Positions 1,139 to 52,899 are shown, numbered from the stretch's first letter. The stretch is 64,000 bases of DNA from an uncultured bacterium (GCA_963845185.1 CAWJRG010000009.1:832001-896000); one strand, 5' to 3'. Made by a program: numbers and translations. The notes: generated from the sequence alone by a model not told the origin.

Positions 1139-2455
1139 TTAAAAATTAGCCTGCGTCCAGGTGGTCTTGTTGGCTTGACCACCGTCGCCAAGCTGGCCAT
1201 AATTATTATACCCGGTTGCCCATAACGTGCCGTCAGTCTTTAATGCAAAACTATCCCAGTATCCTGCTGCTATGGCGCTTACTCCTGTTAAAACCTCCAC
1301 ATATATACTGACATTGCTATATGTCCCGTTGCCAAGCTGGCCATTATTATTATACCCCGTTGCCCATAATGTGCCGTCAGTCTTTAATGCCAGGCTGCAA
1401 TCATATCCTGCGGCAATGGCGCTTACTCCTGTCAAAACCTGCACATATGTACTGACACTGTTATATGTCCCATTGCCAAGCTGGCCTTGAGTATTATACC
1501 CGGCTGCCCATAATGTGCCGTCAGTCTTTAATACCAGGCTATGTTCATATCCTGCCGACACGGCGCTTACTCCTGCCAACACCTGTTCAAATTTACCTAC
1601 GGGATTAAGAGTCCCATTGCCAAACTGACCGTCATTATTAATCCCGTCTGCCCATAATGTCCCGTCAGTCTTTATAGCAAAACCAAAATAATTTTCTCTC
1701 GATGCCGCTATGTCGCTTACTCCTGCCAGCACCTGCTCAAATGTATCTCTGTTATTGGAAGTCCCGTCGCCAAGCTGGTCATCACCATTACCCCCTGTTG
1801 CCCATAATGTCCCGTCAGTCTTTATAATAAAACTGTCTCCCAATCCTCCAGTAATGTCGCTTACTCCTGCTACTACCGTCACCTGCTCAAATGAATACGA
1901 ACTGGTAGTATTCCCATTGCCATACTCGCCGACCTGATTTAACCCCGTTGCCCACAAACTGCCGTCACTTTTTAAAGCCAGGCTATGATAATCTCCTGCC
2001 GATATTTTTATAACAACAACAGGGGTATTTGTCTCTGTTACAGTTACAGTTGATGTCGGCGTGATTGTTGCTGTATTAACATGAGTGTCTGTCAGTGTTG
2101 CTGTAGGCGTTATTGTAGCCGTGATTGTGGCTGTATCAAGTGGAGTGTCTGTCGCCGAAATTACAATCGTGTTTGTTGCCGTATTAAGCAGGGTATTTGT
2201 TGCTGTTATTACAGGCGTATTTGTTGCCGTGTTAAGTAAAGTTTCTGTCGATGTCATAACTGCTGTCTTTGTAGCCGTATTAAGAGGCGTATTTGTCGCA
2301 GTCCGTATTGCCGTGCCCGTGGCCGTCAAAGCCGCCGTGTTCACCGGTGCTGCGGCAGGAGGAGCAGTCGGCGACTTTACGCTTCTGCACCCGTTTAATG
2401 CCAAGACAAAAATAATTAATCCTGTAATAACCGTCAATGCAATCCTGTTTTTCAT
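1139..2455 (-). CDS. Lipoprotein with Thr/Pro-rich linker and RCC1-like beta-propeller repeats
   Basis: Lipobox LNGC, TATNTP repeats and repeated SLALKTDGTLWATGYNxxGQLG. Start moved to ATG 2455, which has GGAGG upstream; the ORF track gives 2476. Confidence 0.85.
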   Translation of the reverse strand: MKNRIALTVITGLIIFVLALNGCRSVKSPTAPPAAAPVNTAALTATGTAIRTATNTPLNTATKTAVMTSTETLLNTATNTPVITATNTLLNTATNTIVISATDTPLDTATITATITPTATLTDTHVNTATITPTSTVTVTETNTPVVVIKISAGDYHSLALKSDGSLWATGLNQVGEYGNGNTTSSYSFEQVTVVAGVSDITGGLGDSFIIKTDGTLWATGGNGDDQLGDGTSNNRDTFEQVLAGVSDIAASRENYFGFAIKTDGTLWADGINNDGQFGNGTLNPVGKFEQVLAGVSAVSAGYEHSLVLKTDGTLWAAGYNTQGQLGNGTYNSVSTYVQVLTGVSAIAAGYDCSLALKTDGTLWATGYNNNGQLGNGTYSNVSIYVEVLTGVSAIAAGYWDSFALKTDGTLWATGYNNYGQLGDGGQANKTTWTQANF

Positions 2456-2456
2456 A

Positions 2457-3434
2457 TTAAAATGCCTCCTTTGCAAATATCATGACGCCGTTACCGGATA
2501 CATTAATCCCGGCTTTTATGTCCGTAGGATACACCCAGTGCAGGTAGAAATAATCCGCCGCGGTATAGGCAAGCGCCGCGCCTGCCAGGCACGTGCCTAT
2601 GACAAGCGGTATTTTCTTGTCGTCCACTGTCTTTTTCATGGAAAGCAGCTGGTTATAGTTTGTGCCTTCGGCGTTGTTCAGCATGCTGTAACTTTTGTTG
2701 TAGTTATCCGCGGTTGTCCACTGGTCATTAACCGAATATGCCGCATAAGCAACCAGGGCAACATCAAGCGCGTCCAGGCCTATGCAACCCCAGCATATTC
2801 CCAGTTCCTTGCGCGCTTCTGCTTTTGGCTCTTCTTTTTTTTGTTCTGTTTCTCCGATTATGATTTTTTGTTCCATGGTTTTGCCTATAATTACCATTTC
2901 TATCCTTCTGTTCTTGCTTCTTCCTTCTTCCGTTGAGTTGTCGCTGATGAAATTGACTGGCCCGAGCCCCCTGATAGCCACATCCTTTTCATTCAAACCC
3001 TTGCCCTTGTATTTATCAAGTACATACGCCATGACCGAATCAGCCCTTTTTTCAGCCAATTTTATATTGTACTCTTGTGTGCCTTCGATGTCGGTATAGC
3101 CGTCTATTTTTATGAAAGGCTTTTCATTTTTATCAAGGAAATCCCCTATAATCTTTATTGCTTCATCCAGTTTCGCGTAAGACTCTTCAGGTATTTCAGC
3201 GCTGTTTTTCGCGAATGTCAGCCCGTAAAAGTTCAATACTTTTTCTTTTGCAGCGCCCTGTGCCGTTGCAGTAATGCCCTGGGCCGTTGTGGTAGTGCCC
3301 TGGGCAGTTATGGTATTATCCCGGGCTGTTGCAGTAATCCCGGAAGCCTGCGCAGCAGGCAAAACATCCCCGGCAAAAGCATAAGCAGAAAATACAGACA
3401 GGATGATGAACAAAGCAAATTTTTTCCCTCTCAT
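2457..3434 (-). CDS. OmpA-like peptidoglycan-binding domain protein with hydrophobic C-terminal extension
   Basis: Signal peptide; F..NSAEI, IDGYTD.EG..EYNIKLAEKRA.SV and EGRSKNRRIE motifs. Confidence 0.85.
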   Translation of the reverse strand: MRGKKFALFIILSVFSAYAFAGDVLPAAQASGITATARDNTITAQGTTTTAQGITATAQGAAKEKVLNFYGLTFAKNSAEIPEESYAKLDEAIKIIGDFLDKNEKPFIKIDGYTDIEGTQEYNIKLAEKRADSVMAYVLDKYKGKGLNEKDVAIRGLGPVNFISDNSTEEGRSKNRRIEMVIIGKTMEQKIIIGETEQKKEEPKAEARKELGICWGCIGLDALDVALVAYAAYSVNDQWTTADNYNKSYSMLNNAEGTNYNQLLSMKKTVDDKKIPLVIGTCLAGAALAYTAADYFYLHWVYPTDIKAGINVSGNGVMIFAKEAF

Positions 3435-3460
3435 GGAGACCTCCTATTTTTTGCACACCG

Positions 3461-3558
3461 CTTTATAGCGTTTGTTTTGTCAAGCTTAATAGCGTAGACA
3501 AAACATTACGCCATAAAGTACCCGCTCAAGTCTCGAGCTTGAAAGAGACAAGAGGTGT
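3461..3558 (-). repeat. Two-hairpin structured element, copy A (candidate cis-regulatory RNA or mobile repeat)
   Basis: Shares CGTAATGTTTTGTC...AGCTTGACAAAACAAAC and CACC..GTC...GAC..GAG.GGGT with 40101-40202 and 52691-52855. Confidence 0.75.
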
Positions 3559-3586
3559 TGATAATTTTTCCAAATTCTTAACTGCA

Positions 3587-3615
3587 ATTATATCTTTGCT
3601 TTATGGCTTTGTCAA
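3587..3615 (-). promoter_or_regulatory. Sigma70-type promoter
   Basis: TTGACA (3615-3610), 17-nt spacer, TATAAT (3592-3587) on the minus strand. Confidence 0.75.
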
Positions 3616-3652
3616 TTGCAGAAGGCGTAAATTTAATTGAAAATTGCCTTCG

Positions 3653-4342
3653 TTACCATATATATGGAATAATCTTATACCTGGTTTTATTGGTATATTC
3701 ACGGTATCCGGTCAGTTCATTTATCAATGTCCTGTCTTCCAGATATGTCCTTACCAGTAAAAACAGGATTGAAATAAATACCGGGATTATGCTCCAAAGA
3801 GAGCCAAAGAGCAGCGGAAATCCTATGTCCTGAATTAGATTGCCCAGATATGCCGGATGCCGGACAGCTTTATATAGCCCTGTATGCACAACTGTGTGCC
3901 CCCTGTCTGTTTGAATACGCACAAGGCTTGAAAAAAACTTATTTTGTTGTTGCGCTATTATAAATAAAAGCTGCCCGGCAACTGTAAGGACTAAACCCGC
4001 GAGATAAAAACTCCAATGAAAGTCAGGTGACCATTTAAAGCGTCCGGAATCAAGCCCGGCTGTAATATACATGATAATCAGCACCACCGCAGATATTGCT
4101 ACTATTTGTTTATCCCACTTTTTAACCCCTTGTCCGGGTTTTGAGCGCTCGTCCATGAGTTCAGGATCAGTGCGCAATAAAGATAAGCCTATCACCGTCA
4201 TCAAAACACCTGCCGCCGCGTACACCCATCCCTGCCAGTAATTTATCCGGCCTGCGCTGATGAATATTATTAAATAAAATACAAGCGTGCCTATAAATTG
4301 CTTGATAAAAAGTTGGCTTATTTTCATTGATTGCGCCCTCAT
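3653..4342 (-). CDS. Isoprenylcysteine carboxylmethyltransferase (ICMT/PEMT) family membrane protein
   Basis: Multiple TM helices; NKFFS..VRIQ.DRGH.V..TGLY..VRHPAY and EDRTL..EL.GY.EY motifs. Confidence 0.85.
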   Translation of the reverse strand: MRAQSMKISQLFIKQFIGTLVFYLIIFISAGRINYWQGWVYAAAGVLMTVIGLSLLRTDPELMDERSKPGQGVKKWDKQIVAISAVVLIIMYITAGLDSGRFKWSPDFHWSFYLAGLVLTVAGQLLFIIAQQQNKFFSSLVRIQTDRGHTVVHTGLYKAVRHPAYLGNLIQDIGFPLLFGSLWSIIPVFISILFLLVRTYLEDRTLINELTGYREYTNKTRYKIIPYIW

Positions 4343-4405
4343 TATTTTTAATTGTCAGCTCTCAATTGCCAGCCTTCAATGGAATTTCATTCATTAATAG
4401 TCTTT

Positions 4406-4972
4406 TTACTTCTTTTCCAGCAGCATTGAGAAGCTGAATACTGCCTTTGTTCCCGCAGACGCGCTAAAACCTGCTTTTACTGCCGATACTTTTTCCGCTT
4501 CAAAATCCTTTTTGGAAACATGCAGCAACGGCTCTATCACGAGCAATTTGCCGCCAAGCTTAAGCGCAAAATATATTTCGCTGAAAAATTTATCAGTATC
4601 AGGCACTTCATGCACCATGTAAAAAGCGAGCGCTGCGTCGAGACCCGGCACCAAGTTCAGGGTATCCTTTTCTGCTTTTATAAACGTGACGTTCTTGTTT
4701 TTGCAGTGTTTCTCCACTCTTTTTTTCGCCTTATCCAGCATTTCCTGCTGCAAGTCGACTGCGTATACTTTTCCAGAGGCTCCAGCTGCGTCTGACATCG
4801 CGGTAGTAAAAAAACCAGGTCCGCATCCGATATCTGCCACGGCCTTGCCTTCGCCTGCGAGGCTAACGAGTATTTTCTTCGGGTTATGTACAAGCCCGCG
4901 AAAAAACAAAAGCCCCCAGCTCCACGAAGCCGGGCATACGAATTTTTCATCCATTTTATCCTCCACATCCAT
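4406..4972 (-). CDS. Class I SAM-dependent methyltransferase
   Basis: VADIGCGPGFF motif I; VYAVDLQQEML. Confidence 0.85.
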   Translation of the reverse strand: MDVEDKMDEKFVCPASWSWGLLFFRGLVHNPKKILVSLAGEGKAVADIGCGPGFFTTAMSDAAGASGKVYAVDLQQEMLDKAKKRVEKHCKNKNVTFIKAEKDTLNLVPGLDAALAFYMVHEVPDTDKFFSEIYFALKLGGKLLVIEPLLHVSKKDFEAEKVSAVKAGFSASAGTKAVFSFSMLLEKK

Positions 4973-5013
4973 TCAGTAATTTGGATTTGGGATTCGAATA
5001 CCCAAAGCCATAC

Positions 5014-5424
5014 CTAAATTTTAAAACGGTCAATTATCCCAAATGTTTTCGCATGATATTCCGAAATTTCGAATGAAATCCCGGGCGTCTTGTTTATATT
5101 CATGCGGATTTTGTCTTGCCTTCTTTCAGCCGATATGTCCGACCACGGTATGAACAACGGCGGGTGAAACGGCCTGGACAGGAAATGCATGTGCACATGC
5201 AACCCATCGCTATCGGCCGTGCCGTAAACAAAGCCGTTGTAACTGAAGAAACGCATTCCTATTGTGGTAATCCGTATCGGCTTGTTTTCGCGTTTCTTGT
5301 CCGGCGGAGTCCTGTAAAGTTCAGTTAGCGTCTTCCACCCTCCGACTGTCGAGCTGACAAACATCGCGATAGGATAAAGAAGGATAACAAGGAAAAAAGA
5401 ATATCTTGCCCAAAAATCATGCAT
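5014..5424 (-). CDS. Hypothetical membrane-anchored protein, copy 1
   Basis: N-terminal TM helix and FHPPLFIPW motif; near-identical to 9402-9815. Confidence 0.75.
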   Translation of the reverse strand: MHDFWARYSFFLVILLYPIAMFVSSTVGGWKTLTELYRTPPDKKRENKPIRITTIGMRFFSYNGFVYGTADSDGLHVHMHFLSRPFHPPLFIPWSDISAERRQDKIRMNINKTPGISFEISEYHAKTFGIIDRFKI

Positions 5425-5491
5425 AGTAGTGCCTCCCTTGATTTCAATTTTTAATTAAAAAAAGGCCAAAAAGGCGCAAAGTAATTCCTCC

Positions 5492-6373
5492 CTATTGGTA
5501 AATCCCAAACGGCCATGGATTGGCCATCTCCTTTTGAATGTTTATATTACCAGTGCCTGCTTCATACTTTATTAAACCATAATCCTGTTCTGTCAGGTTT
5601 GTGCCTCCCATAGGGTCAAAATAAACAACATACTGCGTCGGCCTGCCGTTTGCATCGTAAGCATAGGTATCATACTGCTGTTCTGTCAGGTTGGTGCCGC
5701 CTGTCGGATCGTAATAATCAACATACTGCGTCAGCCTGTTGTTTGTGTCATAGGTATAGGTGGAATATTCCATTTCCGTAAAATTGCAGCCGGTGCAGGT
5801 GGTATAATAATAAGAATCCTGCGTCATGCTGTTATTTGTATTATAAGTATAGGTATCGTAATTCAGTTTTGTGCCGGAGGGATAATTATAATTGGTTTTT
5901 TGCGCAATATTGTTGTTTACATCATAAGTATAGGTAATATACCCGGTTTCTACGAAGTTGCCGGATATGTAAGAATAACGGGTAACCTGCGTCAGCCTGT
6001 TGCTTGTGTCGTATGTATAGGTATCATACCCCTGCTCTGTAAGGATGCCGCTGAATGTCGGGTCAGAATAATAAATGCGCTGCGTCATCCTGTTGCTTGT
6101 GTCGTATGTAAAGATCGAATAATCAAATTTCGTGAGTGCAGCTGTCGTTGTATTGGGCAAATAATAATCCAATTCTGTCAATAAATTGCTGCTGTTGTAG
6201 CTGTAAACCGTAGAGTAGATTTTTGTGTTTGTAGTGTCGTAACCGTCCTCTTCTGATATTCTTGATACTCCCGTGTTTGTAGACGGGCAAACAGGATGCG
6301 GCAGTTTCCTGCACGAGAAAAAAACAATAATAATAATCGTTGTAATCAAAATCAAACCTAATATTTTTTTCAT
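5492..6373 (-). CDS. Lipoprotein with YD/RHS-like repeats
   Basis: MKKILG...FFSC lipobox and repeated YTYDTSNRLTQ. Start moved to ATG 6373. Confidence 0.75.
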   Translation of the reverse strand: MKKILGLILITTIIIIVFFSCRKLPHPVCPSTNTGVSRISEEDGYDTTNTKIYSTVYSYNSSNLLTELDYYLPNTTTAALTKFDYSIFTYDTSNRMTQRIYYSDPTFSGILTEQGYDTYTYDTSNRLTQVTRYSYISGNFVETGYITYTYDVNNNIAQKTNYNYPSGTKLNYDTYTYNTNNSMTQDSYYYTTCTGCNFTEMEYSTYTYDTNNRLTQYVDYYDPTGGTNLTEQQYDTYAYDANGRPTQYVVYFDPMGGTNLTEQDYGLIKYEAGTGNINIQKEMANPWPFGIYQ

Positions 6374-6379
6374 GTCTGT

Positions 6380-6465
6380 CTCCGTTTTTAAATAATTTTC
6401 AATTTTCAATGAAAAACAAAATTTTTTCTTTTCTTTCAATTGAAAACTGATAATTCTTAATTAGT
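6380..6465. repeat. AT-rich heptamer-repeat palindromic intergenic element
   Basis: ctccgtttt-aaataattttcaattttcaat...attgaaaactgataatt; homologous to 11366-11455 and 60354-60442. Confidence 0.6.
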
Positions 6466-6470
6466 ATTTA

Positions 6471-7169
6471 TTAAATTAATTCTTTTCTATCTTTAAACAA
6501 TAAACCTAAATCTTTTTCATAAACGCGAAAACCAGTTCCATGGTTTCTAACAGAACCATTAGGCTTTAAATACATTCTTATATCTACAAAAGCAGATTTA
6601 TTTATAATGGCATCTATAAAATTATCATCCGAAGGATTTTTAAGTAGGTATGCTTTATTATAAAAAAATTCCTCAACGCCGGCCTTATTTTTTTTCACAT
6701 CTGCACAAACAACGATTAACTGGCTCATTTTTGACAAAAATTTTGCGACAATAAAGCTTATTTTCCAATTACCTATAAGTATATTTTTCCTGTCTTTAAG
6801 TTGAAGGTTTCCTTTATTATCTACATCTAATAACAAACCTTGCTTATTAGGTTTTCTATATGAAACTGTAACATACAAACAATGCCGTTTATTTTCATCA
6901 AAATAACCATATTTAGAAATAGCGTCTTTCGGATGAATCTGCCATACGGATTTATTAAAAGTAAAAAGTGTAATAAGGGATGATGAATTCTCTCTCATTG
7001 ATTTTAACTCTATCCTACCGCCAAGGTCAGGAACAGCTATATTGGTTTCTTTAAGATTCAATTCAGATTCAAAAGTATAGCCGATGCCGGTAGGACCTCT
7101 TCTTTTAGAAGGTATAAATCCTTTATCTTTCAAATTTTTTAATCTTTTTTTTAGTTCTACAAGGGTCAT
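6471..7169 (-). CDS. MvaI/BcnI-family restriction endonuclease
   Basis: GPTGIGYTFE..L...E.N...PD.....ELKS, ITLFT and RNHGTGFR motifs; 232 aa; adjacent to a methyltransferase. Confidence 0.85.
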   Translation of the reverse strand: MTLVELKKRLKNLKDKGFIPSKRRGPTGIGYTFESELNLKETNIAVPDLGGRIELKSMRENSSSLITLFTFNKSVWQIHPKDAISKYGYFDENKRHCLYVTVSYRKPNKQGLLLDVDNKGNLQLKDRKNILIGNWKISFIVAKFLSKMSQLIVVCADVKKNKAGVEEFFYNKAYLLKNPSDDNFIDAIINKSAFVDIRMYLKPNGSVRNHGTGFRVYEKDLGLLFKDRKELI

Positions 7170-7187
7170 TTCCTCTCCTTTTGGACT

Positions 7188-9080
7188 TTATTTGGGCTTT
7201 TTTAAAATCACTATACTTTCCTTTAACATGGTATCCTCTTTTTGTCCAGCAATATTTGTAGGTGAAGTTTTTAAAGGCATCCTTTTGCCTGGAATATTCC
7301 TTACAAATATATCCTCGCAGCTAAAGCCTATATTTTCGCAAAGTTCCGCTATAATAAAATCAGTTGGAATCCTTACCTGCTTAACAAGGCGGTTTCCAAT
7401 TACAATGCAAAAATATTTATTTACTTTAAGTATTTTATATGCATGCTTAAAACACTTTTCTAAATCAATATAAAAACTTAAAACTTCCCTAGCGCGTTTT
7501 TCATCTTTATTTAATATTTCTTTTAAAATCAAGTCTAAATATTTTGAATTAAGGACATTTTTAAATTCCTTAACTGCTTTTCCGCCGAGCAACTCGTTGT
7601 CCACATTGGAAGCTGTATTTGGGTCTTCAAAAATATCTATCCATTGACTTGATAATCTTGAAAACTGCCCATATGCCACGGTCGTCCTGCTGTCTCCGTA
7701 GGGAGGAGAAGTAATAATACAGTCAATTGAATTTTCCTTTATGCTATTGTCTTTTGAAGAGTCTCCATGTATTATTTTTGCCCAAGTATTTTTATCCACA
7801 TTTTTGTAAAATTCTTCCATTCCCAATATATTTGTTTCAACTTTTTTCTTAAAAATATTAATTACATCCGGATTATAATCTTTTAATTTTTCTTTAGATA
7901 TCTTTACAAGTTTGAATTCTCCGCTTTTTGTGTTGGATACATTCCTTACTATCTCGCTGAAGGCAACCATGAAAAATTTTCTGATATTTCCTTGTTCTAT
8001 TTCATTGATGGCTTTTTTAATTTTAGCTAATTTTAAAATCACGTTTTCTTTAAACCAAAAATCAAGATTAAAAAAATTTGGTTTAGTGATATTTTTATTG
8101 TTAATCTTTTCAATTCTATTAATCAAATTAAAATATTTTTTACTTAATATTGCAGGGTTTATTTCCGTTGCTTTTACTTTCGCTAAAAAAACAGCCAACG
8201 GATTCAAATCAATCCCATAAGCGTTTCTTCCCAACAATCTGCTTTCTACCAAAGCCGTACCCGAACCGCAAAAAATATCGCAAATAGTGTCACCTTTTTT
8301 ACTATAGTTTTGCAACAGCCTTCTTGCTACTTGCGGAATAAACATCGCCGGGTATGTATGCAATCCATGCGTATATGATTTCGTCTTTTCTCCCGAATAA
8401 TCCCATGAATAATCAATCCGCCTCTTATATTTACTTTTGAATGAAGAGCTTTTTTCGGTTTTTTGTTCTAAATTGCGTATTATTTTAACAACAATACCTC
8501 TTATTTCAATTTCTTTTGGATATATTGGGAAAAGTAAAGGATTTGCCGGTTGTAATCTTATTCTATCTTTTTCGCGGTAAATTTTTTTTAAAGTTGCTTT
8601 GTCCTCACCAATGATAGCTACAACAGATTGTCCATTTTCCGCGGTCTCCTGCTTGCGTATTACAACTATATCGCTATCGAAAATCCCCTCATCTATCATG
8701 CTATTGCCCTGCACCCGCAAAGCGAAATATTTCCCTGCTTTACCCAACTCATCTTTCGGAATCGAGATCGTTTCTTGAGAGTTTTCGATTGCGTCAATAG
8801 GTTCACCGGCAGCTATAGTACCCAAAAGAGGAACATCTACTATATCCTTCCCTTTTTGGGAATTTTTGACAATTTCAATACCTCTTGAAATATGGGAATG
8901 TTTTTTTATATAACCCTTTTTTTCTATTGCCATCAGATGGTCTTTAACTGCTGTTGGGGATTTAAAAGAAAATTTCTTACAAATTTCCGAGATGGTAGGA
9001 GGAAATCCATTAATATGGATGTTTCGAACAATGAAATCTAATATTTCTTTTTGTCTTTTTGTTAAAACATTATTTTTCAT
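7188..9080 (-). CDS. LexA repressor fused to an N4-cytosine DNA methyltransferase
   Basis: aa 1-~205: LexA wHTH (LTKRQKEIL, PPTISEI), IAAG cleavage site, GNSM serine, TLKK lysine. Remainder: HTYPAMFIP, DIFCGSGT (motif I) preceding IITSPPY (motif IV). Single uninterrupted ORF. Confidence 0.9.
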   Translation of the reverse strand: MKNNVLTKRQKEILDFIVRNIHINGFPPTISEICKKFSFKSPTAVKDHLMAIEKKGYIKKHSHISRGIEIVKNSQKGKDIVDVPLLGTIAAGEPIDAIENSQETISIPKDELGKAGKYFALRVQGNSMIDEGIFDSDIVVIRKQETAENGQSVVAIIGEDKATLKKIYREKDRIRLQPANPLLFPIYPKEIEIRGIVVKIIRNLEQKTEKSSSFKSKYKRRIDYSWDYSGEKTKSYTHGLHTYPAMFIPQVARRLLQNYSKKGDTICDIFCGSGTALVESRLLGRNAYGIDLNPLAVFLAKVKATEINPAILSKKYFNLINRIEKINNKNITKPNFFNLDFWFKENVILKLAKIKKAINEIEQGNIRKFFMVAFSEIVRNVSNTKSGEFKLVKISKEKLKDYNPDVINIFKKKVETNILGMEEFYKNVDKNTWAKIIHGDSSKDNSIKENSIDCIITSPPYGDSRTTVAYGQFSRLSSQWIDIFEDPNTASNVDNELLGGKAVKEFKNVLNSKYLDLILKEILNKDEKRAREVLSFYIDLEKCFKHAYKILKVNKYFCIVIGNRLVKQVRIPTDFIIAELCENIGFSCEDIFVRNIPGKRMPLKTSPTNIAGQKEDTMLKESIVILKKPK

Positions 9081-9107
9081 TTAATCAAGCCTCGTTCAAT
9101 TTTTTTG

Positions 9108-9136
9108 ATTATACTGTATAAAAATACAGTTGTCAA
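9108..9136 (-). promoter_or_regulatory. Consensus sigma70 promoter with a LexA-type operator in its spacer
   Basis: TTGACA (9136-9131), 17 nt, TATAAT (9113-9108); CTGT-ATAAAAAT-ACAG at 9114-9129. Confidence 0.85.
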
Positions 9137-9207
9137 GGTAATTTAATTTCCCAGTTGTTTTTCTCTTTCCTTTAAACATCAAAATTTCGTTTTTTAATTT
9201 TTAAGAT

Positions 9208-9387
9208 TTAATATGGTAACCGAGGTGTTATAGATATATTTCAGCCCAGCACGTCGGATAAAAGCGGGTTTATGAAGGAATATTTCGTGGATTCCTAGTT
9301 ATAGGCAGAGGCCTTGCCTGCTTCAAGCTCCGCCTTAAAGCGCGAAACGAGTTTTATGAGGTTTTGTTTTGCCTGTTGTTTGTCCAT
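9208..9387 (-). pseudogene. Decayed 5' fragment of a type I HsdR-N / type IIG-like restriction enzyme gene
   Basis: MDKQQAKQNLIKLVSRFKAELEAGKASAYN*ESTKYSFINPLLSDVLG*; resembles the nE..Tr..fI.Pll..LGW motif, with stops at the E and W positions. Confidence 0.6.
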
Positions 9388-9401
9388 ATAACCACCCTAT
9401 T

Positions 9402-9815
9402 TTAAATTTTAAATCTGTCAATTATCCCGAATGTTTTCGCATGGCTTTCCGAAATTTCAAATGAAATCCCGGGTGTCTTGTTTATATTCATGCGGATTTT
9501 ATCTTCCCTTCTTTCAGCCGATATGTCCGGCCACGGTATGAACAACGGCGGGTGAAACGGCCTGGATAAAAAATGCATGTGTACATGCAGTCCGTCGCTG
9601 TCTGCCGTGCCGTAAACAAAGCCATTGTAACTGAAGAAACGCATTCCTATTGTGGTAATCCGTATCGGCTTGTTTTCGCGTTTCTTGTCCGGCGGTGTCC
9701 TGTAAAGTTCAGTTAGCGTCTTCCACCCTCCCACTGTCGAGCTTACAAACATCGCGATGGGATAAAGAAGGATAACAAGGAAAAAAGAATATCTCGCCCA
9801 TAAATCATGCATCAT
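9402..9815 (-). CDS. Hypothetical membrane-anchored protein, copy 2
   Basis: Differs from 5014-5424 by three substitutions (S/P, Q/E, Y/S) and an extra initial Met. Confidence 0.75.
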   Translation of the reverse strand: MMHDLWARYSFFLVILLYPIAMFVSSTVGGWKTLTELYRTPPDKKRENKPIRITTIGMRFFSYNGFVYGTADSDGLHVHMHFLSRPFHPPLFIPWPDISAERREDKIRMNINKTPGISFEISESHAKTFGIIDRFKI

Positions 9816-9878
9816 ATTTACCTGTCTTTCATTTAAGAATTTGGAATTTCATGCATTCAAAATACATTGATAATTATC

Positions 9879-10874
9879 TTAATACGTCTTCGCAAAGCGG
9901 AAACCGGCATTGATGACCGCGCTATACGCGGAGTTGTTAGCGCGGTCGCCCACCTGCAGGAGGTACGCTACATAAAAGGCAGTGTTGAAGCTCCCGCCCC
10001 GCATCACACGGAGGGAGCCGCTTGCCGGCCCTGTGTAATTAATTTGTGCTGTAGTGGGATATGTCCCAAACCAGTCCCAGCACAATTCCCACGCATCACC
10101 CGACATATCATATATTCCAAGCGCGTTCGCGGCTAACGTGCCTACAGCCTGCGTACTAAAGCAATTTGAACTAAACCACGCTACAACCTCGGTTGCAGGT
10201 ATGTCGCTGACAGTATCTGTCGCGCCGCTGGCATAGTCATAAGGCGTCCAGTTTGTCCCGTCTATATAGCTTGCCGCGTACTGGTGTTCACCTTCTGTAG
10301 GAAGCCTGTATCCATCTGCGTTCCAGTTTACATACGGGTTATCATAACACCCTGCTGCCGTACAGGTAGTAGTGCCATACGCCCCGTTTACAGAACTATT
10401 AATAGCCGTGGTAAGCCCCGAGTCTGAATAATACACAGGGGTCAACCCTGTTTCCCGGCTGAATGCATTACACCACACAATAGCGTCGCGCCAGTTGACA
10501 GTTGTTACCGGCTGATATTCCGCAGAGGTCGGCGCGGCACCCGCCGTCCCATTGGAACCCTCTGCGCCTGCATTTTGAAAAGTATATCCGTTGGCAACGG
10601 CCCATTGATATACTGTATACCATAAATAATACGGCACCTTATACTTGCCCATCTTAAAAGCAGATATTGTGTGGCTGAAACTATTTGTTCCGTCGGTCTG
10701 CGTAAATGTCCCTCCCGGAACCGATACAAGATCCGTATAAAAAGCAATAGGCGTTGGTGCTGGAACAGCAGGTGTCTGCGTTACTGCAGGCACGGCAGGT
10801 GAATGCAATTTTTTGCAGCTGGCTATAATTAATATTGCGACGAGAATCAATACCAGGATTAAAAATTTTTTCAT
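9879..10874 (-). CDS. Lipoprotein with FGE-sulfatase/SUMF1 (C-type lectin fold) domain
   Basis: Lipobox IASC; PVTTVNWRDAIVWCN, GYRLPTEGE, NALGIYDMSG..WELCWDW, RVMRGGS and GFRFA motifs. Confidence 0.9.
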   Translation of the reverse strand: MKKFLILVLILVAILIIASCKKLHSPAVPAVTQTPAVPAPTPIAFYTDLVSVPGGTFTQTDGTNSFSHTISAFKMGKYKVPYYLWYTVYQWAVANGYTFQNAGAEGSNGTAGAAPTSAEYQPVTTVNWRDAIVWCNAFSRETGLTPVYYSDSGLTTAINSSVNGAYGTTTCTAAGCYDNPYVNWNADGYRLPTEGEHQYAASYIDGTNWTPYDYASGATDTVSDIPATEVVAWFSSNCFSTQAVGTLAANALGIYDMSGDAWELCWDWFGTYPTTAQINYTGPASGSLRVMRGGSFNTAFYVAYLLQVGDRANNSAYSAVINAGFRFAKTY

Positions 10875-10881
10875 AAAATCT

Positions 10882-11358
10882 TCACCTCAATTCATAATTG
10901 TACGGCTCCTGCTTTATATCAACGGTAAAATTTTTTGTTGTCTTTGCAACTTCGATACCCAATAAAATCTGCTCCGCCATTGCGGGAACCGCGCCACTTT
11001 TCGAACATGGCTGCCCCAGGGTCACAATGATATTGTTGCTGTTCGAGGGGTCATTGCCCACGCCTGCCAGGTACGCTCCGGTGCCGCCGATATACTCATC
11101 AATTATAAAATAGGTTTTATTTATAAAATCCCATGATGTTGGCGTTGTACCGCCCGGGCAATATACATCAAAATCCGCCAATGAATTGACAGTGAAAGTC
11201 CCTGTCGTGCAGTCCGGCGGTGATACCGAGTTATATGAAATGTCGTTTGGCCCTGTCACCTTGGTACATTGTTTCTGGCATGCGTTAAAAGCAAGGATAA
11301 GTGCCGCAGCGGCAAATAGAAGAAGATTCTTTATGACTGCCTTCCGGTATTTTTTCAC
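10882..11358 (-). CDS. Hypothetical lipoprotein (possible PrcB-C-like domain)
   Basis: Lipobox FNAC; loosely similar to 46370-47014 (DF.NK, Cys pattern). Confidence 0.6.
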   Translation of the reverse strand: MKKYRKAVIKNLLLFAAAALILAFNACQKQCTKVTGPNDISYNSVSPPDCTTGTFTVNSLADFDVYCPGGTTPTSWDFINKTYFIIDEYIGGTGAYLAGVGNDPSNSNNIIVTLGQPCSKSGAVPAMAEQILLGIEVAKTTKNFTVDIKQEPYNYELR

Positions 11359-11365
11359 TTACCGC

Positions 11366-11455
11366 CTCCGTTTTAAGTAATTTTCAATTCTCGATTTCCA
11401 ATTATCAATTAAATTTTTTCATTGAAAACTGACAATTATTAATTGACAATTGTTT
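11366..11455. repeat. AT-rich heptamer-repeat palindromic intergenic element
   Basis: aattttc/aattctc/gatttcc/aattatc units followed by inverted aactgac/aattgac units. Confidence 0.65.
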
Positions 11456-11458
11456 CAA

Positions 11459-12439
11459 CTATTGCGACCACCAGACGTCGTTTAAATACCCTCCGCTGCC
11501 GTCGCCGCAAAGCACCCACATCTCGTTGTTAAACACAACACTTGTGTGTCCCGCCCTTGCGCTGAACGCAGCCGGGTTTGCCGCTTCCATCCAGTTTGCC
11601 CCGTCCGTGGAATACCAGACATCATTCATATAGCCTGTGTTTTCATCACCTCCAATCACCCACATTGCCCCGCTGTATACTATGCTTGATTGGTCTCCTC
11701 TCGGACCGAAAGCTGCCGTGCCTGTTACCTGTACCCAGGAAACTCCGTTACTTGAGCTCCACACGTCGCTTAAATAACTGCCGTCAAACCCGGCTATCAC
11801 CCATATTTTATTTTTATATACCACGCTGCTGTGGTTTTCTCTCCCGCTGAAAAGCGCACCTGATGTAGCCGGGATCCACGTAACCCCGTTGCCTGAATAC
11901 CAGACATCGTTTAAACGGCCTGCCGTCTCCGCGCCACCTATCACCCACATCTGATTGTTAAAAACTACGCTGCTGTGGCCCACCCTGCTCGGAAAATTTG
12001 CCGTGCCCGTGACCTGCGTCCATGTATTGCCATCGCCCGAGCTCCACACATCGTTGTATATTGTTAGGCCGCTTGAGCCGGCTATTACCCACATTGCGTT
12101 ATTGTATACCACGCTGGTATGTCCGTACCTTGCGCTGAATGACGGTGTTGCCGCCTGCTGCCAGCCAGCGCCGTTTTGTGAATACCATACGTCCTTTAAA
12201 TCGCCGGAAACCCCTGTCCCGGCAATGATCCAGACATCATTGTTGAATACCACGCTTGTATGCGCTGACCTTGCGGCAAAAGGCGAGCCGTTCAGCGCTT
12301 TTGCCCAAATTATACCCGATACGGGCGTGTTTGTAGCTGTTGCTGCAGGCGCAGGCGACGAGGGCGAGGATTTTTTCGAGCAGTTGGATATGATTACAAT
12401 TGCGAAGAGAACTAAAATTGGAATTAAATTTTTTTTCAT
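11459..12439 (-). CDS. Lipoprotein with kelch-like beta-propeller
   Basis: Lipobox ISNC; six repeats of FSAR.GHTSVV.NN.MWVIAG...NDVW.S.DG..W. Confidence 0.9.
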   Translation of the reverse strand: MKKNLIPILVLFAIVIISNCSKKSSPSSPAPAATATNTPVSGIIWAKALNGSPFAARSAHTSVVFNNDVWIIAGTGVSGDLKDVWYSQNGAGWQQAATPSFSARYGHTSVVYNNAMWVIAGSSGLTIYNDVWSSGDGNTWTQVTGTANFPSRVGHSSVVFNNQMWVIGGAETAGRLNDVWYSGNGVTWIPATSGALFSGRENHSSVVYKNKIWVIAGFDGSYLSDVWSSSNGVSWVQVTGTAAFGPRGDQSSIVYSGAMWVIGGDENTGYMNDVWYSTDGANWMEAANPAAFSARAGHTSVVFNNEMWVLCGDGSGGYLNDVWWSQ

Positions 12440-12578
12440 AACGCCTCCATTTTCAAATGATTCTCAATTACCGGTTGTAATTTAACTTCACCGAAAATTA
12501 AAAATATTTTGCCGTATTTTAATATAAAAACAGGTTTATGGACTGTCACTGACTTTAAGACAACGGCTCTACTTTTAA

Positions 12579-13022
12579 TTATAATCCATTATCCTGGCAG
12601 GCCACCCAGTGTGAATCTATGGCCGAGGTATTGCCGCTTACAGTTATTGTATGCGTGGATCCCAGTGTTACTGAAAAAGCGCACCAGTTGACATAATAGC
12701 CGTTTGTACCGTTTACATTTACATTGTATGAATCTGTAGCCGGTATGCCGATACTTACATCCGCTGAAGTGCCTGCTGTTATTGAACAGCTCTGCGAATA
12801 ACTGCTTGAATCCGAATTGCGCACTAATTGCACTGAAACAATAGTTTTTGTTGCGCCCGAATCGCTGTTGGTGATGTTGAACATAACATAATTCGGAGTC
12901 TGCGTTGGTATAGGCCCCGGCGATGTGGATGATTTTTTTGTACAACCGAGGTTAAGCATGTTTAAAACAATAAAACAACATCCAACAAAAAAGACTGCTG
13001 AAAATTTTTTGTGAGTAGACAT
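12579..13022 (-). CDS. Hypothetical lipoprotein; 3' exon of the intron-split gene (original ATG at 14918)
   Basis: Lipobox NLGC and KKSSTSP linker. This ORF's ATG (13022) lies inside intron domain VI; splicing gives MKKFSAV... Confidence 0.8.
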   Translation of the reverse strand: MSTHKKFSAVFFVGCCFIVLNMLNLGCTKKSSTSPGPIPTQTPNYVMFNITNSDSGATKTIVSVQLVRNSDSSSYSQSCSITAGTSADVSIGIPATDSYNVNVNGTNGYYVNWCAFSVTLGSTHTITVSGNTSAIDSHWVACQDNGL

Positions 13023-14914
13023 CTTTTATAACCTCCTTTGGTTACTTAATGCCCCTCTCAGAACCGAACGTGACCGTTTCGGTCATTCGGCTCCACGGGA
13101 ATACTTCCTAATACGATGACAGCGAATAGGTTAAATGATATATCCTGGGTTCCGGCAATGGGTTGTATCTTAGAAAGCGGCAAAACTGTTCCCAGTTGTA
13201 ACTTCTTTTCTGGCTTCGCCTGTTTATCCATTTATAGGCGAGCGCACGATTTCTCCAGTAGAATTTTGTTATTTGGGGCATATTACCGCTTATCCCGTAA
13301 TAATTGTAGTGGCCCGTTAACTTTCTTCCTAATGCCTGCCACCACTGTTTTAATTCCACAAGATTTCTTACGCTCTTTAGCCAGAAGTTCGTCGCCTTCA
13401 TCTTCTGTTTGAATTTTGTACTTGCCGTCCTTCGGCCTAATTTGAAGCCGCCCTTTCTGGTTTTGTCGCAGTAATGAGTAAACCCGAGGAAATCAAAGGT
13501 CGGAATTTTCCCGCCTGTATCTTTGGACTTATACCAGGCGTGGCGCCCGAATACGATTATTCTCGATTTATCTTTGGCGATTTTGAGGCCAAACTTATCA
13601 AGCCTCTGTCTTAACATTTCGCCAAACTCCTTTGCTTCGCTGTCATATTGGAACAGCACAACAAAGTCATCGGCATAACGTATCAGACTGGCGTATCCTT
13701 TGAGCTGTCTCTTGACATGCCTTTCGAACCACAGGTCTAATATGTAGTGTAGGTAGATGTTCGCCAGTAATGGGCTTAGTATTCCGCCCTGCGGCGTCCC
13801 TTTATCCGTTTCGATAAACTTACCTTCTTCCATAATCCCTGCATTTAATATCCTGCCGATTAACCTTATCAGGTTTGTATCGGCAATCCTTTGCGTAAGG
13901 CATTTCATTAGCCATTTGTGGTTTATGGTATCGAAAAACTTCTCAATGTCCATATCCACTACTGCGTTGACTGGCTTTGTCATTACTTCCTTATCCAGAA
14001 TTTTCAATGCCTGATGACAATTTCTGTCAGGCCTGAACCCGTAAGATACTTCGCTGAAGTCTACCTCAAAGATTGACTCAAGAATTTTCTTTACCCCCAT
14101 CTGGATTATCTTATCCTCGACGGCAGGTATTCCCAGCGGCCTCTTGTCTCCGTTTGTCTTGGGGATGTAGACGCGCCTTGTTGGTTGCGGTATGTATCTC
14201 CACGCCTTCATCCTATTGATTAAATCCTTGATATTTGCCTCTTTGTTGACTTCATATTCCTCTATCCTTACTCCGTCAATGCCCGGGGCTTTGTCCTGTT
14301 TTAACTCCCCAAAGCACTCCATTAGAAACTCCTCATTGAGCAGGTGTATCAGCGATGTAAATCTCAATTTTGGATTTTCCTTTGCCCGCATTGTTATGGT
14401 CATAAGTTTTGTTGCCATTCCGTCTCCACCTCTGTGTGTGGCGGTTGTCTCCCTTATGTCCATACGCATTCCCTCTATCCCCTTTCTCCATCTACTTTCG
14501 TAGACTTCATCGATACTATGGGATAGTCAGACTGCCGGAACATCTTTTGCGGCTCCTTATCTTTTAGGATTTGTCGCCGCATACTCTCGTTTTGAGGGTG
14601 TCCCGGCTCTCCCGAGTTCATATCTGCTCCTTGACATCTTGACACGGACTTAGACCCCGTCGGATTCCCACTCTCTCGCCTTTTTATGATTGTGGGACTG
14701 CTGCCTGCTCTTTTATGAAAAATGTCGGCCTCCGACACGTTGGCGATTTCGGGGCTCAATACCTTCACTTGCGTTGTATCCCGATGTCTCCCGCCTTCCA
14801 GCTTCATTTAGCTCGTTGCCTCACTATTTGTGGAATTTGGTATTGGGCTGGCGGCTGACCTTTGCCCAGGCTGGACTTTCACCAGCGCGAACCGATACGC
14901 TTTTCTCGGCGCAC
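13010..14914 (-). mobile_element. Group II intron (IIB-like ribozyme, class E-like IEP), apparently complete
   Basis: 5' end GTGCG at 14914; domain V GGAGCCGAATGACCGAAACGGTCACGTTCGGTTC at 13094-13061; domain VI with bulged A (ATGTCT-A-CTC); RT ORF within domain IV. Confidence 0.93.
13108..14418 (-). CDS. ltrA: Group II intron reverse transcriptase/maturase without endonuclease domain
   Basis: KAPGIDG, RPLGIP..EDKIIQ, SYGFRP, GTPQGGILSPLLANIYLH, RYADD, FDFLGF and X-domain GHYNYY. Probable start MATKL at 14418; the ORF track gives 14469. Confidence 0.95.
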   Translation of the reverse strand: MATKLMTITMRAKENPKLRFTSLIHLLNEEFLMECFGELKQDKAPGIDGVRIEEYEVNKEANIKDLINRMKAWRYIPQPTRRVYIPKTNGDKRPLGIPAVEDKIIQMGVKKILESIFEVDFSEVSYGFRPDRNCHQALKILDKEVMTKPVNAVVDMDIEKFFDTINHKWLMKCLTQRIADTNLIRLIGRILNAGIMEEGKFIETDKGTPQGGILSPLLANIYLHYILDLWFERHVKRQLKGYASLIRYADDFVVLFQYDSEAKEFGEMLRQRLDKFGLKIAKDKSRIIVFGRHAWYKSKDTGGKIPTFDFLGFTHYCDKTRKGGFKLGRRTASTKFKQKMKATNFWLKSVRNLVELKQWWQALGRKLTGHYNYYGISGNMPQITKFYWRNRALAYKWINRRSQKRSYNWEQFCRFLRYNPLPEPRIYHLTYSLSSY

Positions 14915-51846: not shown

Positions 51847-52098
51847 CTATCCCTCACTTTCCACTTTTTCCAGCACCCAATCCAGGGTCTTCTGGTTAAA
51901 GGAAAGCTCGTAATACCCTCCTTCGCCCACTGCGGAAAAATGCACCAGCAAAGCATTGCCCTCCAGGGTGTTCCAGGTATACGTCACGTCCTTTACGTCT
52001 ATTTTCCTGTTTTTCCACTGGAACCATTTCGGGACTATCCTGTTTTTCACGAATACCGCGCCTACGTTTATCTTATCTCCTATCTCAGTTACGCTCAT
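51847..52098 (-). CDS. Small conserved hypothetical protein of the lexA-dinB cassette
   Basis: P.WF.W.NR...V..V...W......HF.......YEL.F.....W.L; translationally coupled to lexA. Confidence 0.75.
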   Translation of the reverse strand: MSVTEIGDKINVGAVFVKNRIVPKWFQWKNRKIDVKDVTYTWNTLEGNALLVHFSAVGEGGYYELSFNQKTLDWVLEKVESEG

Positions 52099-52679
52099 TT
52101 TATTTTCCTTATTACCCCTGCCACTTTCCCCAGCACTTTTACATCCTTTGACACTATCGGGCTGTATTTCGGGTTCTCTGCGACAAGCTTTATCCCGTCC
52201 GGGGTAAAGTAATACCGCTTTATGGTGGCTTCGTTTTCCAGTAGGGCCGCTATTATTTCCCCGTCAACCGCTGTTTTCTGTTTCCTGATTACTACCATGT
52301 CGCCGTCAAATATGCCGGCTCCTGTCATGGAGTCTCCTGTCACGCGCAGGGCAAACATGTTCTTAAGGCCAAACATGTCGGTAATGCTGTCTATATGCTC
52401 CTCGATATTTTCAATTGCGTCTATCGGCTTGCCGGCGCTTATCCTGCCCACTACAGGTATGCCTACTGCCGGTTTTAAGAGCTCTATGCCGCGGGCTGTA
52501 TTTTTCCTTATCCTTACGTATCCGGCCTCGATTAGCCTGTTCAAATGGTGAACCACCGGCGCGTTAGAAGTAAACCCGCAGTCCCTTGCCAGTTCCCTCA
52601 TAGTTGGCGGCAGCTTGTGTTCCCTTGCCAGGTTATTCAAGACATCCAGTACCTTAAGTGTCTTCTTTCCAAGTTCCAT
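52095..52679 (-). CDS. lexA: LexA repressor
   Basis: PPTMREL, RGIEL, GRISAG.P, GDSM, ATIKR. Start ATG 52679 has GGGAGG upstream; the ORF track extends into the repeat. Confidence 0.93.
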   Translation of the reverse strand: MELGKKTLKVLDVLNNLAREHKLPPTMRELARDCGFTSNAPVVHHLNRLIEAGYVRIRKNTARGIELLKPAVGIPVVGRISAGKPIDAIENIEEHIDSITDMFGLKNMFALRVTGDSMTGAGIFDGDMVVIRKQKTAVDGEIIAALLENEATIKRYYFTPDGIKLVAENPKYSPIVSKDVKVLGKVAGVIRKIK

Positions 52680-52690
52680 ACTTGCCTCCC

Positions 52691-52855
52691 TTGATATTGT
52701 TTGTTTTGTCAAGCTTACCGGCGCAAGTTAAATAGTCTTGTAGACTATTTGACGGGTAGTCTCCATAAAGTTAGTAAATATAAAAACTACCCTAAACATT
52801 ACGAGATCAAGCACCCAATCAAGTCCGGGACTTTTAAGCCGAGGACGAGAGGTGC
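52691..52855 (-). repeat. Two-hairpin structured element, copy C, with an internal ~70-nt hairpin module
   Basis: Same flanks as copies A and B; the insert (about 52727-52795) matches 23574-23640. Confidence 0.75.
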
Positions 52856-52870
52856 CTGTTTACTTCATTA

Positions 52871-52899
52871 AAATTAGTACAAATGTTCTAATTTGTCAA
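52871..52899 (-). promoter_or_regulatory. lexA-dinB promoter with a palindromic GAAC-N4-GTAC operator
   Basis: Minus strand TTGACA-AATTAGAACATTTGTAC-TAATTT; imperfect palindrome at 52871-52894. Confidence 0.8.

Follow-up and report, generated by a model that had tools for sequence, protein, structure and literature searches.

We analysed a 64,000-nucleotide stretch of DNA from an uncultured bacterium (GCA_963845185.1, CAWJRG010000009.1:832001-896000), called here the window and used as the coordinate frame throughout, in which a 2.7-kb restriction-modification (R-M) cassette contains a LexA repressor fused in frame to a DNA methyltransferase. All the cassette genes lie on the minus strand. 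The fusion gene is preceded by a consensus promoter and followed by a gene for a restriction endonuclease of the MvaI type. The features are listed below; the subgroup named there consists of those relatives that share the palindromic operator of the window.

7188..9080, minus strand: LexA-methyltransferase fusion gene, 630 amino acids (aa), an open reading frame (ORF) without internal stop
6471..7169, minus strand: MvaI-type restriction endonuclease gene, 232 aa, same direction as the fusion, Pfam MvaI_BcnI match with E 1e-36
7170..7187, minus strand: intergenic gap between fusion and nuclease, 18 nucleotides (nt), with a GGAG ribosome-binding site at 7175-7178
9131..9136, minus strand: −35 hexamer TTGACA, kept in six of six aligned subgroup loci
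9108..9113, minus strand: −10 hexamer TATAAT, placed by the promoter match and the subgroup alignment
9113..9130, no strand assigned: predicted operator, palindrome ACTGTA-N6-TACAGT with its core at 9114-9129, filling the promoter spacer
8871..9068, minus strand: winged-helix DNA-binding head, aa 5-70, with the helix FKSPTAVKDHL, which resembles that of E. coli; likely acquired by a swap
8805..8810, minus strand: Ala91-Gly92 scissile bond, by alignment with solved LexAs, in 84 of 84 loci
8586..8702, minus strand: S24 peptidase dyad, Ser127 at 8700-8702 and Lys165 at 8586-8588
8424..8471, minus strand: variable LexA-methylase linker, aa 204-219, of low identity across the family, with a predicted local distance difference test score (pLDDT) below 50 at aa 204-215
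7194..8423, minus strand: N4-cytosine-type DNA methyltransferase, FCGSG (aa 270-274) preceding SPPY (aa 458-461); predicted to be CCWGG-specific
9242..9401, minus strand: dead 5′ gene fragment with an in-frame stop, directly upstream of the cassette

In the fusion, Pfam placed LexA_DNA_bind at aa 5-67, Peptidase_S24 at aa 84-198 and N6_N4_Mtase behind them, the protein scored 206 bits against the lexA model TIGR00498 (cut-off 111), and the PADLOC type II MTase model spanned aa 219-629 (E 8e-139). These matches agree with an earlier note on this DNA, which had read the 630-aa ORF as a complete LexA joined to a methyltransferase; its Ala-Gly bond and Ser/Lys residues were likewise recovered, as A91-G92, S127 and K165 align with the cleavage site and catalytic dyad in LexAs of known structure. 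Its assignment of the methylase to the m4C type is borne out by the order of FCGSG before SPPY, and the nuclease gene does begin 18 nt downstream with a GGAG of its own. A structure model of the fusion (mean pLDDT of 79, with a low-confidence linker at aa 204-215) and a fold search confirmed the LexA fold plus a separate methyltransferase fold; the model is silent on contacts between the domains.

Conservation was examined in 84 loci, the window included, that carry a whole LexA plus a methylase; loci cut inside LexA, headless loci and unfused ones were left out of this set. The Ala-Gly bond, the Ser and the Lys are invariant in all 84, in an alignment where only 26 of 200 LexA columns are, and the methylase motifs FCGSG and SPPY are invariant in the 74 full-length loci. 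The LexA pocket residues that accept Phe203 of RecA have been named (10.1101/2023.10.30.564768). By sequence alignment, the equivalent pocket of the fusion consists of L86, I89, F119, L121, V154 and A162; five of these positions are hydrophobic in nearly all loci, and 83 of 84 have Ala at the remaining one. The RecA of the host carries the docking-loop Phe (VMFGNPETT). A C-terminal tag does not stop E. coli LexA from repressing or from being cleaved in vivo (10.1101/2020.07.14.201889), so a methylase tail is not necessarily an obstacle to cleavage. RecA-type self-cleavage of the fusion at Ala91-Gly92 is thus a prediction that is indirectly well supported.

Of 19 promoter-like sites in positions 5000-10000 of the window, TTGACA-17-TATAAT at 9136-9108 alone matches at 12/12 positions; its spacer contains CTGTATTTTTATACAG, and CTGT-N8-ACAG, at 9114-9129, occurs only once in the 64 kb. 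This is the perfect promoter with a LexA-like box in its spacer that had been claimed before. The palindrome CTGTA-N6-TACAG is conserved in all 10 subgroup loci, of which about six are independent, and in six aligned subgroup loci the 29-bp promoter-operator forms the sole conserved island within ~200 upstream bases, with fixed arms and a variable middle. The exact ACTGTA-N6-TACAGT has one copy in the 3.5-Mb host genome, that in the fusion's own promoter.

We then compared the operators of the 84 loci. Direct repeats with an 11-bp period were found in 65 (46 TTCTA, 11 TTCGG, 6 TTCGA and 2 other) and the palindrome in 10, while 9 fit none of the strict patterns. The 10 palindrome loci, which include duplicates and stand for ~6 lineages, were mostly retrieved with the nuclease of the window as query. 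All of them have the helix FKSPTAV-x-DHL, near the E. coli and Pseudomonas LexA helix, and this helix is absent from the 48 distant fusion representatives checked. The direct-repeat loci have STxH helices in which the following residue tracks the repeat. Helix and operator were paired as follows: SPTA with the palindrome (10/10), H-[QE]-H with TTCGG (11/11), and H-[YHF] with TTCTA (46/46) or TTCGA (6/6). In 52 of 54 loci the direct repeats adjoin a hexamer resembling a −10 element. Autorepression of the fusion through the predicted spacer operator is therefore likely; the earlier claim of it stands on support that is indirect, namely an operator type that varies with the recognition helix within the family and an operator conserved in the spacer.

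The subgroup also differs from the bulk of the family in the orientation of its nuclease, which runs in the same direction as the fusion in 9 of 10 subgroup loci, the tenth being cut off. In the other 74 loci the nuclease is convergent in 56 and co-directional in none, and 18 gave no nuclease match. No terminator-like site was found in the gap at 7170-7187, and the junction of fusion and nuclease folds only weakly (−5.2 kcal/mol). Inspection of 8 loci by eye showed neither an antisense promoter nor a hairpin that is conserved and might delay the nuclease.

The fusion is not confined to this genome. All three domains are carried by 119 of its 120 best homologues, a set that includes the window's own protein, at 65-100% identity. 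A genome scan returned at least 562 related stretches, and the 80 loci kept from it come mostly from Patescibacteria, and also from Omnitrophota, Elusimicrobia, WOR-3 and others. Two direct-repeat-type fusions (L036 and L080) lie on contigs titled as archaeal, through transfer or misbinning. A peptidase-domain search of 50%-identity representatives gave 150 matches, and we scanned the 50 with an N-terminal peptidase and a long tail. A DNA methylase was present in 42 of these, from four Pfam families (28 N6_N4, 6 Eco57I/N6, 5 D12 and 3 C5); the remaining 8 are all shorter than 380 aa and carry no further family. None of the 50 has a nuclease alone or a non-methylase family as partner of the LexA head, a pattern that suggests selection for a link between LexA and a methylase. 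The cleavage and catalytic motifs are present in 48 of 48 distant fusion representatives checked. Surveyed across genomes with its upstream operators, as the earlier note had proposed, the LexA plus N6_N4_Mtase architecture is a recurrent design, with methylases in 42 of the 50 long relatives and operator classes assigned over 84 loci. None of the 515 matching records in plasmid collections or of the 167 in phage collections covers 80% of the fusion, and viral contigs yielded no full-length copy either, so that no cultured carrier came to light. Family genes are often annotated simply as lexA, which makes the design easy to miss.

The DNA-binding head and operator of the subgroup have quite probably replaced the direct-repeat head of an ancestral fusion, a reading that rests on identities and best trees. 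Compared with direct-repeat members, the fusion of the window shows 31% identity in the head and 69-70% in the peptidase and methylase. Compared with four stand-alone LexAs (P0242-P0245), it shows 65-72% identity in the head but only 39-43% in the peptidase; among these four, similar head identities accompany 50-64% peptidase identity. In the best trees the subgroup head groups with the stand-alone proteins, and its peptidase and methylase nest among direct-repeat members. Against the swap, approximately unbiased tests left the no-swap trees unrejected (p 0.35, 0.46; 0.11). No head donor with promoter DNA was found among the 19 matching genomes of 201 searched in the phylum of genome G061, nor in viral contigs. 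Other stand-alone lexA genes showed candidate boxes of their own. Five with an SPSGA helix (L121, L124, L126, L128 and L131) share GGTGAACAA[AG]TGTATAC near promoters, a candidate LexA box, and five with a KPS/KPT helix (L117-L120 and L122) have an upstream [CT]TA-N3-4-[AG]TTAG-like spacer motif, a candidate box seen by eye.

The specificity of the cassette was approached through its nuclease. MvaI has been described with its site CCWGG, N4-methylcytosine and its catalytic and base-reading residues (PMC1874612; PDB 2OA9), and BcnI with CCSGG and a central-base His77 (PMC3089477). All four catalytic residues of MvaI (Glu36, Asp50, Glu55 and Lys57) are kept, as E34, D48, E54 and K56, and so are the base readers Thr68, Thr102, Asp207, Arg209, His225 and Arg230, while BcnI His77 corresponds to a Thr. 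In the 563 kb of DNA flanking the 80 family loci, CCWGG was the most depleted of 32 pseudo-palindromic 5-mers, with an observed/expected ratio (O/E) of 0.64 compared with 0.92 for CCSGG; a small control of relatives' loci (51 kb) showed no depletion of CCWGG (O/E 1.0). CCWGG is thus the likely target, as predicted from residues and depletion. From the CCWGG/CCSGG-like target proposed earlier, the first alternative is favoured and CCSGG is less likely, given its ratio and the missing His77.

The cassette also appears foreign to its surroundings. Its G+C content is mostly 23-38% per 200 bp, with two 200-bp windows at 41-45%, in a genome of 42%, and no full-length fusion was found in 60 relatives of the host genome. 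The dead fragment behind which it is placed is 83% identical to another site of the same contig (C9:929353-929511), where an 868-aa ORF follows (region C9:926558-929511) and the first open frame of at least 120 aa begins ~300 bases later. We take this fragment to be a putative remnant of a type IIG R-M gene. The AT-richness of the 2.7-kb type II R-M cassette and its position behind a dead gene argue for horizontal arrival.

Taken together, we favour, with a probability of about 0.58, a horizontally acquired CCWGG-type cassette in which the LexA head on the methylase represses its own promoter and cuts itself on activated RecA. Dimers of the fusion would occupy ACTGTA-N6-TACAGT and cap their own level. 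Single-stranded DNA (ssDNA) would then load RecA, Ala91-Gly92 would be cut and the DNA-binding head freed. The consensus promoter would fire and supply extra methylase as repair and recombination create unmethylated sites; in the subgroup only, the nuclease gene would be on the same transcript and rise too. Because the operator differs from the box of the host lexA, the circuit would borrow RecA but not the host SOS repressor. The conserved output of the family would be the methylase, as the nuclease lies outside the LexA-controlled transcript in the bulk of it (56/56). The earlier idea that damage boosts both enzymes may therefore hold in the subgroup of the window, with its co-directional nuclease, but not elsewhere, the nuclease being convergent in all 56 loci with a match. 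Safe establishment in a new host, also proposed earlier, would not be automatic: transcription of the two genes would begin immediately at a consensus promoter, and gene order alone would delay the nuclease.

Several observations weigh against this reading. CTGT-N8-ACAG alone is a weak pattern, which 26 of 100 shuffles yield and which has 43 occurrences in the genome; as the box itself is not rare, the weight of the operator rests on its spacer position and conservation. The agreement between helix and operator is among kin, with 6, 9 and 8 class changes on the head, peptidase and methylase trees; we discarded these counts as proof of co-evolution, the difference being too small to be informative. 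Glu189 of E. coli LexA, a RecA contact, is replaced by Arg or Lys. Five near-identical subgroup records (L081:10-1707; P0013, P0361-P0364) carry a headless variant, an in-frame deletion that keeps the cleavage site, dyad, methylase and nuclease intact, so that repression is dispensable there. On the side of the nuclease, three MvaI contact positions differ (Asn28 to Pro, His223 to Arg and Asp224 to Asn). In the host genome CCWGG is only mildly depleted (0.80, third of 32), a signal confounded by a second MvaI-family system on contig C4, an unfused methylase and nuclease pair (C4:10096-11874; 27% identity to the window's nuclease). Finally, degradation of the cleaved fragment may take the attached methylase with it, in a host that has ClpX. 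In E. coli the C-terminal LexA fragment with a fused PAmCherry is efficiently degraded after cleavage (10.1101/2020.07.14.201889), and the methylase could thus fall after damage.

This last point is the foundation of a rival in which cleavage exposes a degradation signal, the peptidase-methylase is lost and the nuclease overproduced, so that newly made, unmethylated host or invader DNA is cut and the damaged or infected cell dies. The PAmCherry result and the ClpX of the host speak for it, as do the co-directional nuclease and the missing terminator in the window, and it would explain why methylases were repeatedly fused to LexA and not merely co-transcribed with it. However, in the 56 other loci with a nuclease match that gene is convergent and would not be co-induced, existing methylation protects until replication, and the E. 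coli degradation result need not transfer; we regard this rival as unlikely. Its widest form is also doubtful: the LexA head as a portable, re-targetable RecA switch on at least four Pfam methylase families, with damage in the subgroup destroying the methylase and overproducing the nuclease, that is, an SOS suicide device.

Autorepression might instead be all that the head provides. In that case LexA would serve as a dimerising repressor that steadies the methylase, like the helix-turn-helix (HTH) of M.Ecl18kI, with cleavage absent or irrelevant. Methylases that repress themselves through an N-terminal HTH and take no damage input are known (PMC3874152), a tail of 420 aa might impede access to the RecA groove, and the host recA has no LexA box. 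Yet neither the scissile bond nor the dyad varies in the 84 loci or the 48 distant representatives, the RecA pocket is kept and tagged LexA is still cleaved in vivo, all of which make a head without cleavage rather improbable.

A much poorer case can be made for the fusion as a global SOS repressor of the host, alongside or instead of its private role. In its favour, the fusion passes the lexA equivalog cut-off (TIGR00498) and carries the sole LexA head found in the related, incomplete genome G062. The host, however, has a distinct lexA in the window (52095-52679, minus strand), which precedes an 83-aa gene and a DinB-like polymerase gene (region 52095-52888) and whose promoter spacer holds a different box, GAACATTTGTAC. 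The host recA has neither this box nor the operator of the fusion; beyond the one exact operator in 3.5 Mb, the shorter CTGTA-N6-TACAG was found once in G061 and twice in G062. With a single exact operator, none of it at recA, and a separate lexA, we rejected a global role, which is very unlikely. Because the host has its own lexA with another box and a recA without that of the fusion, the circuit is, as far as these sites tell, private to the cassette in this host. That chance read-through or an assembly error joined two genes is refuted by the same single ORF in 119 of 120 top homologues from many genomes, which also excludes the stop or frameshift between the domains that the earlier note had named as fatal to its proposal.

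Two copies of a 136-aa gene with no Pfam match, 93% identical (5015-5424 and 9403-9812), bracket the cassette and one lipoprotein-like gene; they could be the mark of a duplication or a means for the block to loop out. The cassette is embedded in a run of co-oriented genes (1139-13022, minus strand), many of them lipoprotein-like (RCC1-like, Kelch, FGE-sulfatase and OmpA domains), with similar AT-rich intergenic motifs. No attC-like repeat of an integron cassette array stood out in this run, for which no model-based attC search was made. A reverse transcriptase gene, by Pfam, lies at 13108-14469 (minus strand).

Of the ways known to us in which type II R-M systems are controlled (C proteins, autorepressing methylases and antisense RNA), none responds to DNA damage. 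If true, a RecA-cleavable repressor inside a methylase would be a new mode of R-M control that ties self-protection, and here restriction too, to ssDNA. The design is not a one-off, since 42 of the 50 long relatives have it, with methylases from four Pfam families. Within the family a single scaffold bears a natural range of LexA heads, with palindromic or direct-repeat operators to match, which makes a change in LexA binding geometry directly testable. We found no published description of a LexA-methylase fusion or of LexA control of R-M, judging mostly at title level. There is none in the available parts of PMC12255303 and PMC3765255, and in those of a review of R-M regulation the LexA passages concern toxin-antitoxin systems only.

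Among known systems, the nuclease is like MvaI in its four catalytic residues and six base readers, and unlike MvaI and BcnI at the three altered contacts and at His77, respectively; the available parts of PMC1874612 and PMC3089477 make no mention of a LexA fusion. With E. coli LexA (PDB 3JSO, 8TRG) the fusion shares the domain layout, the Ala-Gly bond, the Ser/Lys dyad, a similar helix and, in its own promoter, an operator of the same form (CTGT-N8-ACAG, PMC8565304). Unlike it, the fusion is joined to a methylase, would control one cassette and no SOS regulon, and coexists with a host lexA of another box. Type I restriction alleviation, in which ClpXP destroys the nuclease subunit (PMC11109961), meets the same problem of unmethylated sites after repair and recombination, which the fusion would answer by raising methylase synthesis instead.

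Two regulatory systems are also comparable. In CapH-CapP, ssDNA leads to cleavage of a repressor and induction of a defence operon (10.1101/2022.04.27.489752), as predicted here. CapP, however, is a separate ssDNA-activated metallopeptidase, whereas the fusion would cut itself on RecA with an S24 domain in the same chain as the defence enzyme; ORF calls and Pfam showed no separate metallopeptidase and HTH repressor genes of that kind flanking the cassette. Autorepressing methylases of the Ecl18kI type have an N-terminal HTH and an operator that overlaps their own promoter (PMC3874152). The fusion likewise has a DNA-binding domain at the methylase N-terminus and a predicted operator in its own promoter, but its head is a whole LexA with a predicted self-cleaving peptidase, and its genes, instead of diverging from competing promoters, run in one direction here and converge in most of the family. 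Its methylase is of the N4 type, unlike M.Ecl18kI, which we take to be a C5 enzyme. By analogy, the system would work like an autorepressing methylase crossed with the damage sensing of LexA or CapH-CapP, while being a member of neither group.

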